Shown here: one piece after another, positions 1-219 of the stretch
Numbering within the stretch: the stretch's first letter is position 1
Layout: each line of letters opens with the position of its first letter
Source of the DNA: Escherichia coli
GTDB taxonomy: Bacteria; Pseudomonadota; Gammaproteobacteria; Enterobacterales; Enterobacteriaceae
DNA length: 219 nt
Strand: one strand, 5' to 3'
Assembly (NCBI RefSeq): GCF_003334785.1
Contig: NZ_QOWV01000095.1
Made by a program: the position numbers and the translations under genes
Notes under the pieces: model-generated
The model's database searches: none
What the model saw: the letters and a program-made list of their open reading frames with translations, nothing else
Told to the model about the DNA's origin: nothing

Positions 1-34
1 TAGGCCGGATAAGGCGTTCACGCCGCATCCGGCA
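1..34 (-). repeat. REP element, Y-like (GCCGGATG type), copy 1; left end possibly truncated by the window edge
   Basis: Reverse complement of 1-33 reads gccggatgcggcgtgaacgccttatccggccta, the classic E. coli REP sequence. Imperfect palindrome with outer arms gccggat (4-10) and atccggc (27-33). Confidence 0.9.
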
Positions 35-47
35 GTCGTGCGCAGAT

Positions 48-83
48 GCCTGATGCGACGCTAACGCGTCTTATCAGGCCTAC
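48..83 (+). repeat. REP element, Z-like (GCCTGATG type), copy 1
   Basis: Plus strand reads gcctgatgcgacgctaacgcgtcttatcaggcctac. Imperfect palindrome with arms gcctgat (48-54) and atcaggc (73-79) and inner arms acgc/gcgt, ending in the REP-typical ggcctac tail (77-83). Confidence 0.9.
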
Positions 84-100
84 AAATTCCCGCGCCATCC

Positions 101-135
101 GTAGGCCGGATAAGGCGTTCACGCCGCATCCGGCA
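101..135 (-). repeat. REP element, Y-like, copy 2 (complete, including the terminal G at 101)
   Basis: Identical to copy 1 shifted by 101 bp. Reverse complement of 101-134 reads gccggatgcggcgtgaacgccttatccggcctac. Confidence 0.9.
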
Positions 136-148
136 GTCGTGCGCAGAT

Positions 149-184
149 GCCTGATGCGACGCTAACGCGTCTTATCAGGCCTAC
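149..184 (+). repeat. REP element, Z-like, copy 2
   Basis: Identical to 48-83 shifted by 101 bp. Confidence 0.9.
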
Positions 185-201
185 AAATTCCCGCGCCATC
201 C

Positions 202-219
202 GTAGGCCGGATAAGGCGT
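202..219 (-). repeat. REP element, Y-like, copy 3, partial (truncated by the window end)
   Basis: gtaggccggataaggcgt matches the first 18 bases of the copy at 101-135; the window ends before the palindrome is complete. Confidence 0.8.

Follow-up and report, generated by a model that had tools for sequence, protein, structure and literature searches.

A BIME-2 array between mhpE and mhpT

The window, by which we mean the whole 219-nt stretch of E. coli DNA analyzed here, is part of an extragenic repeat array that lies between the stop codon of mhpE and the start codon of mhpT. Relative to the window, both genes lie on the minus strand, and mhpE is the upstream one. Among 5,426 complete E. coli genomes, two contain the exact window, namely XL10-Gold (NZ_CP081008) and an isolate from a pig in Norway (NZ_LR882052), and most of the others carry near matches at the same locus. 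A 101-bp unit is repeated 2.17 times in the window without a mismatch (TRF score 438, 100% matches); in order, it comprises a Y-type REP, a linker of 12 nt, a Z2-type REP in inverted orientation and a linker of 17 nt (Table 1). Each unit contains two oppositely oriented hairpins, the first, formed by the Y REP, with the sequence GTAGGCCGGATAAGGCGTTCACGCCGCATCCGGCA and the second, formed by the Z2 REP, with the sequence TGCCTGATGCGACGCTAACGCGTCTTATCAGGCCTAC.

Table 1 Features of the 219-nt window and the evidence for each; carets mark points of cleavage
Feature	Positions	Strand	Evidence or source
Y-type REP, copy 1	1–34	+	33/34 against Y consensus TGCCGGATGCGGCGTAAACGCCTTATCCGGCCTAC; inverted repeat; DNA-fold hairpin
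Y-REP loop GTTCAC, IS1397 insertion point (duplication GTTC or TCAC)	16–21, repeated 117–122		natural alleles; CFT073
GCCG, 4-bp gyrase stagger by homology to K-12 Y REPs	22–25, repeated 123–126		sites 374263 and 374465
S linker GTCGTGCGCAGA, 12 nt, joining Y and Z2 REP heads	35–46		read from sequence; kept in every array unit
Z2-type REP, copy 1, inverted	47–83	+	34/36 against Z2 consensus GCCTGATGCGACGCTGGCGCGTCTTATCAGGCCTACG; inverted repeat
Exact wild-type IS621 target ATCAGGCCTAC, core CT at 80–81	73–83 (second copy 174–184)	+	pattern search; natural insertions
RayT 'iREP II' cleavage motif GGCC^TAC, overlapping the IS621 target	cut between 80 and 81	+	PMC3333891
17-nt linker AAATTCCCGCGCCATCC, joining REP tails	84–100		read from sequence
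Y-type REP, copy 2, complete, GTAG at 101–104	101–135	+	34/35 against Y consensus; inverted repeat
Y-REP tail ATCCGGCCTAC, one mismatch (position 4, C) from IS621 target	101–111, also 202–212	-	pattern search
S linker, second unit	136–147		sequence
Z2-type REP, copy 2	148–184	+	34/36 against Z2 consensus; second exact IS621 target at 174–184
17-nt linker, second unit	185–201		sequence
Y-type REP, copy 3, partial (window ends)	202–219	+	18/18 against Y consensus
Rfam naRNA4 (RF02564), one Y-Z2 pair	3–80, second 104–181	+	85 bits plus, 62.7 minus; gathering score 59.5

The first Y REP is an imperfect palindrome, GCCGGAT-AA-GGCG / CGCC-GC-ATCCGGC, and the window begins at its TAG, the G of the GTAG head being cut off by the window edge. 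In the Y REPs that follow, GTAG lies directly 5' of the palindrome foot, at 101–104 and 202–205. The palindrome arms, GCCGGATAAGGCGT and ACGCCGCATCCGGC, are 86% complementary and carry an AA/GC stem mismatch. In the first Z2 REP, GTAG is on the minus strand and appears as CTAC at 80–83, and the Z2 copies that match their own consensus at 34 of 36 positions score only 29/36 against Z1 and 30/37 against Y. The earlier note on this DNA described Y-like REP copies in positions 1–135. These copies are real, with consensus matches of 33/34 and 34/35, and the range, which runs Y, S linker, Z2, linker, Y, holds a Z2 REP in addition to the two Y REPs. Chance origin of the repeat is excluded because the REP-tail 11-mer motif occurs four times versus 0.00 expected in shuffles, and because the z-score of single-strand folding is -3.5 when one unit is folded as DNA and -10.2 when the 219-nt minus strand is folded as RNA. 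The original definition of the BIME-2 class reportedly comes from Gilson and Bachellier. As described more recently, BIME-2 elements combine y and z2 REPs with a short S linker in tandem copies whose number varies among strains (Ton-Hoang et al. 2012, PMC3333891). The window is a textbook BIME-2 and thus a known kind of element.

Alleles of the locus differ in copy number. A query with the coding flanks located it in 4,924 genomes, in 4,829 of which the flanks were at most 1 kb apart; a 2.1-kb joining limit joined 4,889 genomes, and the flank query covered genomes with joined flanks, leaving 95 apart at the 1-kb limit and 37 at the 2.1-kb limit. Two evenly spaced samples of the flank-query ranking supplied 114 alleles free of IS elements, and their intergenic lengths form discrete classes separated by 101-bp steps: about 175 bp (0.4 units, 65 alleles), 274 bp (1.4 units, 9 alleles), 377 bp (2.4 units, 6 alleles), 476 bp (3.4 units, 4 alleles) and 577 bp (4.4 units, 30 alleles). 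The 175-bp allele, as found in O157:H7 strain F1273, consists of one Y REP without a Z2 REP, and such single-Y alleles make up ~57% of the sample. Across genomes, we found alleles of 0.4, 1.4, 2.4, 3.4, 4.4 and 5.4 units; the longest is that of XL10-Gold, whereas MG1655 and the pig isolate each have 4.4 units. As the discrete 101-bp length classes show, alleles differ by gain and loss of whole Y-S-Z2-linker units. Expansion and contraction in such whole-unit steps could proceed by slippage, by unequal exchange or by amplification driven by RayT.

Where 101-bp units are identical, assemblies easily go wrong and spurious genes are easily called. XL10-Gold, a K-12 derivative (5.4 units, locus coordinates 3800–4344), lacks the variant unit 2 of MG1655 (3901–4344), which is marked by a T in the Y loop and by the linker TCGCGCCACCC; either the laboratory lineage has truly changed or the identical repeats were misassembled. 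PGAP places a 'hypothetical protein' within the REP array of some genomes, and such gene predictions in repeat DNA are probably spurious.

Gyrase, insertion sequences and a possible role of RayT at the REPs

Cleavage of BIME-2 elements by DNA gyrase was reportedly the subject of earlier studies by Yang and Ames in 1988 and by Espeli and Boccard in 1997. In Topo-Seq experiments, a subset of BIME-2 elements is enriched in gyrase cleavage sites, with y REPs cut far more often than z2 REPs (Sutormin et al. 2019, PMC6379681). Table DS3 of that study lists a 435-bp BIME-2 at 374155–374590, with three sites in ciprofloxacin and zero in the other three conditions. This interval is the mhpE–mhpT array because the corresponding gene ends in W3110 (mhpE end at 374105, mhpT start at 374683) flank it, provided that the W3110 Mu SGS reference of that study and NC_007779 are collinear as far as 374 kb; the ends of the interval match to within 2 bp. 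The trusted ciprofloxacin sites in the interval are 374227, 374263 and 374465 (PMC6379681 supplement). Mapped on W3110, the last two occupy an identical offset in two Y REPs, TGCCGGATG^CGGC^GTGAAC, and 374227 maps to a Z2 REP. In single replicates, raw signals recur at the Y position with a spacing of 101 bp across three Y REPs in succession. The expectation for 435 bp is ~0.45 sites, giving P(≥3) = 0.011 for a dataset that describes the K-12 allele, not the allele of the window, and in which reads from near-identical repeats may be mis-assigned. The signals are weak here, with N3E values of 6–8 versus >150 at strong sites in the same table. For the K-12 allele, these published Topo-Seq data show that gyrase cuts the Y REP beside its loop.

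Natural target sites of IS621 are also, reportedly, attributed to work published by Choi in 2003. IS621 belongs to the IS110 family and is a bridge-RNA-guided recombinase, whose natural target is ATCAGGCCTAC and which tolerates, at position 4, a mismatch to the guide-encoded ATCGGGCCTAC (Durrant 2024, PMC11208160). Both exact targets in the window form the tail of a Z2 REP. We built the junction expected for insertion into this tail from the IS621 ends given in Supplementary Table 1 of PMC11208160, and used the 17-nt linker as a locus-specific tag in junction searches; this linker had no match in the parts of the PMC11208160 supplements that were searched. The predicted Z2-IS621 junction is found with 100% identity over all 177 nt in strain CUVET17-972, in which an 'IS110-like element IS621 family transposase' is annotated between mhpT and mhpE. 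A query with the whole disrupted allele was at least 80% covered in 59 genomes and 70% covered in one more, for a total of about 60. In sheet 'IS621 sequences' of the same Supplementary Table 1, the row labels 'Donor' and 'Target' are apparently swapped.

The wild-type junctions have the structure ...CGTCTTATCAGGC-CT, IS621, CT-ACAAATTC..., in which the element measures 1,279 bp including one core. All six wild-type junctions that we checked at intact alleles (five genomes) lie at the CT core in the Z2 tail of unit 1, 2 or 3, and in two further genomes with a 1.4-unit allele IS621 is likewise at the CT core of the Z2 tail. Insertion in unit 1 of the 1.4-unit allele is the commonest class (for example, MEI2A-0323 and S3); IS621 occupies unit 2 in strain 5444 and GZ04-0086, unit 3 in CUVET17-972 and ws5-3, and units 1 and 3 together in 23CRST029. 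These positions in differing units and backgrounds represent several independent insertions. Wild-type IS621 is directed by its bridge RNA to ATCAGGC-CT-AC in the Z2 tail, as some 60 natural alleles show.

Some genomes carry more than one copy of the element near the array. In NZ_AP045796, two IS621 copies in the same orientation (848–2124 and 2329–3605) occupy one Z2 REP each, in unit 1 and in unit 3, and are separated by two units. Strain M23314 (NZ_CP133916 319578–327331, 326500–343000) carries three or more copies of IS621, and its gene order is scrambled, running mhpT, IS621, codB codA, inverted IS621, yahI to prpB, IS621 and yahG; here, the IS621 of the mhp array was apparently involved in the rearrangements that parted mhpT from mhpE. 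For applications of the IS621 bridge recombinase, the K-12 allele is relevant as a source of off-target sites, having three exact wild-type targets, and the same applies to NEBExpress, a B-strain derivative whose 2.4-unit allele should hold two Z2 REPs.

A query for the modelled Y-tail junction gave a 97.8% match in PT62 and LP5-1, two isolates from pigeons whose genomes have the same length. PT62 carries an oppositely oriented element of the IS621 family within the Y REP nearest to mhpE, with the junction ...CCTTATCCGGC-CT, IS, CT-ACGGGTGG.... At its left end, this element departs from the wild type in the stretch containing the guide-encoded target ATCGGGCCT plus several bases downstream of it: its left guide is ATCCGACCT rather than the ATCGGGCCT of the wild type, and the right guide region differs too. 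The ATCCGACCT guide restores the match to the Y tail at position 4. Relatives of IS621 with different target loops are known to occupy different targets, and the data file of the study that established this lists 834 natural sites under loop ATCGGGCCTAC and 245 under ATCCGGCCTAC (PMC11208160). The PT62 variant in the Y tail, which here comes from one lineage, fits this published diversity of target loops.

IS1397, a member of the IS3 family, is said to insert into the loops of palindromic units, as reported by Bachellier in 1997 and Clement in 1999. In CFT073, the element lies in a Y-REP loop, between TGCCGGATGCGGCGTG and AACGCC... (Tobes and Pareja 2006, PMC1525189, Additional file 13). An empty-site query derived from this example was swamped by REP matches in every genome and was rejected. 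An evenly spaced sample from the flank query with the 2.1-kb limit included one genome in which an 'IS3-like element IS1397 family transposase' is annotated in the interval between the two genes, and a query with the resulting IS1397 allele was at least 80% covered in seven genomes, five with the element at mhpE–mhpT, of which two are apparently one strain, and two with it at the neighbouring yaiL–fghA BIME. In each of three mhpE–mhpT alleles examined, a 1,432-bp IS1397 lies in the Y-REP loop with a 4-bp duplication. The junctions read GGCGTTCAC^IS^TCACGCC in a 3.4-unit array and GGCGTTC^IS^GTTCACGCC in both a 1.4-unit array and a single-Y allele. These natural alleles show that IS1397 enters the array at the Y-REP loop. 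In NZ_CP054371 (283–1714), the yaiL–fghA BIME carries IS1397 in the loop of a Z2-like REP, with the duplication GCAA; because of this insertion, the element is not confined to Y REPs.

RayT acts on single-stranded BIMEs and needs the GTAG head, the stem mismatch and C^T cleavage motifs (Ton-Hoang et al. 2012, PMC3333891). The window has all of these features, namely GTAG, the AA/GC mismatch, TGCC^TGAT (47–54) and GGCC^TAC (77–83), and its plus strand has a y REP and then an inverted z2 REP, which is the arrangement of the active substrate B268 (PMC3333891). The pig isolate with the exact window (NZ_LR882052) carries a single rayT at 3542646–3543143, ~94 kb from the array. We infer, from these features of the sequence, that RayT (TnpA-REP) may act on the mhpE–mhpT array, where the GTAG head and AA/GC stem mismatch of each REP would serve the enzyme on single-stranded DNA. 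In NZ_CP100994 (2520–4273) and NZ_LT795502, IS621-family and IS1397 elements adjoin rayT, in the BIMEs that flank the RAYT gene.

The RayT cut GGCC^TAC coincides with the IS621 CT core (C80^T81) in the Z2 tail, and again at 181–182. We know of no discussion of this coincidence. One could speculate that IS621-family elements of E. coli have diversified their bridge-RNA loops so as to split the REP subtypes of a single BIME-2 array, the wild type taking the Z2 tail and the ATCCGACCT variant the Y tail, and that, as the core GGC-CT-AC includes the dinucleotide cut by RayT, RayT nicking and IS621 recombination could compete or cooperate at one phosphodiester bond. We consider this scenario, as a whole, unlikely.

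Insertion frequency and interpretations of the array

Docking of IS elements on the array is real but infrequent. Roughly 4,925 genomes include ~67 with an IS-bearing allele at the locus, many of these insertions being of shared ancestry, and IS1397 is rare here (5 of about 4,925 genomes). By comparison of the 2.1-kb and 1-kb limits of the flank query, ~60 genomes have an interval of 1.0–2.1 kb, which is of the same order as the ~67 counted directly; the gap between these counts probably reflects differing flank lengths. Near-complete IS621 copies are found in 1,636 genomes, at a median of five places per genome, and about 130 exact IS621 targets are usable per genome (PMC11208160). Uniform use of these targets would give ~4% occupancy per target in IS621-bearing genomes, and the occupancy observed here is ~60/1,636, or 3.7%, for zero to four targets, a rough estimate that ignores shared ancestry. 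Hence the suggestion in the earlier note that the array might be an insertion 'hotspot' is not supported, as a handful of ordinary target sites would lead to roughly this occupancy.

Other expectations of the earlier note fared better. Its view of the Y REP as a gyrase site agrees with the K-12 Topo-Seq data, in which two of three sites fall in Y REPs. Its proposal that Y REPs are docking sites for IS elements stands for IS1397, found in the Y loops of five genomes, but not for wild-type IS621, which uses the Z2 tail; on the Y REP, IS621 is represented only by the target-loop variant in two genomes. The note also advised looking for a RAYT gene, for REP-targeting elements elsewhere in the genomes, for variation among strains and for disrupted alleles, and each was found: a search with one PGAP-annotated copy detected rayT in 3,575 of 5,426 E. 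coli genomes (66%), including the exact-window genome NZ_LR882052; IS621 is present in 1,636 genomes and IS1397 in at least 25 among the matches listed; the locus varies by whole 101-bp units; and IS621 disrupts it in ~60 genomes and IS1397 in five.

Taken together, the window is very probably an internal piece of the mhpE–mhpT BIME-2 array that serves as a set of short structured recognition sites, each used by a different known machine. The Y REP is the site of gyrase, IS1397 and the guide-loop variant of IS621, and the Z2 REP is the site of wild-type IS621. A different role, compatible with the recognition-site explanation, would place the main function at the level of RNA, with the array forming the minus-strand 3' tail of the mhpE message, its hairpins shielding upstream mRNA from 3' exonucleases and partly terminating read-through into mhpT, and docking on the DNA being incidental. 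The co-directional arrangement of mhpE and mhpT, with the array between them on the transcribed strand, speaks for such a role, as do the failure to find a sigma-70-like promoter in the intergenic region, the predicted fold of the minus-strand RNA (-131 kcal/mol, z = -10.2) and the behavior of REP325, which is both a partial Rho-dependent terminator and a stabilizer of upstream mRNA (bioRxiv 10.64898/2026.03.23.713779). By contrast, a multi-unit array cannot be required when ~57% of sampled genomes have a single Y REP, and the array contains no site resembling an intrinsic terminator. Weighing these points, we regard the RNA-level role as a serious candidate that comes close to being probable.

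Several further observations touch on transcription and RNA. Searches found no sigma-70-like promoter in the mhpE–mhpT intergenic region and no promoter-like or intrinsic-terminator-like sites in the array. Matches to Rfam microRNA families scored 9–24 bits versus thresholds of 44–153 and were discarded as hairpin noise. A study of the mobilome lists EcoCyc REP31a-g and REP32a-d among the REP regions that are protected against exonuclease under stress (bioRxiv 10.1101/2024.07.17.603846); by map order, REP31a-g and REP32a-d may be the mhpE–mhpT and yaiL–fghA arrays, respectively.

The array could also be selfish or neutral repeat DNA, composed of REPINs that are kept by RayT and replication slippage and have no host function, in which case gyrase, IS621 and IS1397 would merely exploit its sequence. 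Free variation in copy number from 0.4 to 5.4 units is consistent with this possibility, and near-identity of units within an array is as expected of recent amplification. The presence of rayT in 66% of genomes and of the GTAG and stem mismatch needed by RayT points in the same direction. We hold this explanation to be possible, and advance it tentatively. Finally, it is very unlikely that each Y-Z2 pair is a naRNA4-like nucleoid-associated small RNA that would condense the chromosome with HU: RF02564 does score above its gathering score of 59.5 bits on both strands (85 and 62.7 bits), but this model is effectively a profile of any Y-Z2 pair, and a 2026 preprint found REP325/naRNA4 to be without measurable nucleoid compaction (bioRxiv 10.64898/2026.03.23.713779).

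Comparison with known systems

The recognition-site explanation that we favor joins systems that are individually well known, and all mechanisms at the array have already been described, so that current understanding is unchanged. The value of the locus is as a worked example, in that one intergenic region shows each classic REP interaction at base resolution. As to the repeat itself, alternation of Y and Z2 REPs in inverted orientation, a short S linker, tandem repetition and strain-dependent copy number are all present, and we find no substantive difference between this array and BIME-2 elements of E. coli. Gyrase-cleaved BIME-2 elements share with it a preference for the Y REP, cleavage near the loop and stem mismatch and repetition with the period of the unit. 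In contrast, the locus is itself a weak site, with three sites, in ciprofloxacin only, compared with 11 in the eco-mqo array and six at sucB–sucC.

For IS621, the window holds two copies of the natural 11-bp target ATCAGGCCTAC, each including the CT core, and natural insertions at this locus occupy that exact position; the target lies in the Z2 REP, in contrast to the Y REP named in the earlier note. Insertion of IS1397 into palindromic units follows the CFT073 example in its Y-loop position and 4-bp duplication, and we found no difference. The REPIN–RAYT system (TnpA-REP/RayT, yafM in K-12) has its GTAG, mismatch, C^T motifs and single-copy rayT in common with the array and the genomes that carry it, whereas RayT activity on the array is predicted from these sequence features. 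REP325/naRNA4 shares the architecture of a Y-Z2 pair and a covariance score above the gathering threshold, but lies at a different locus, and its proposed role in the nucleoid is now disputed.
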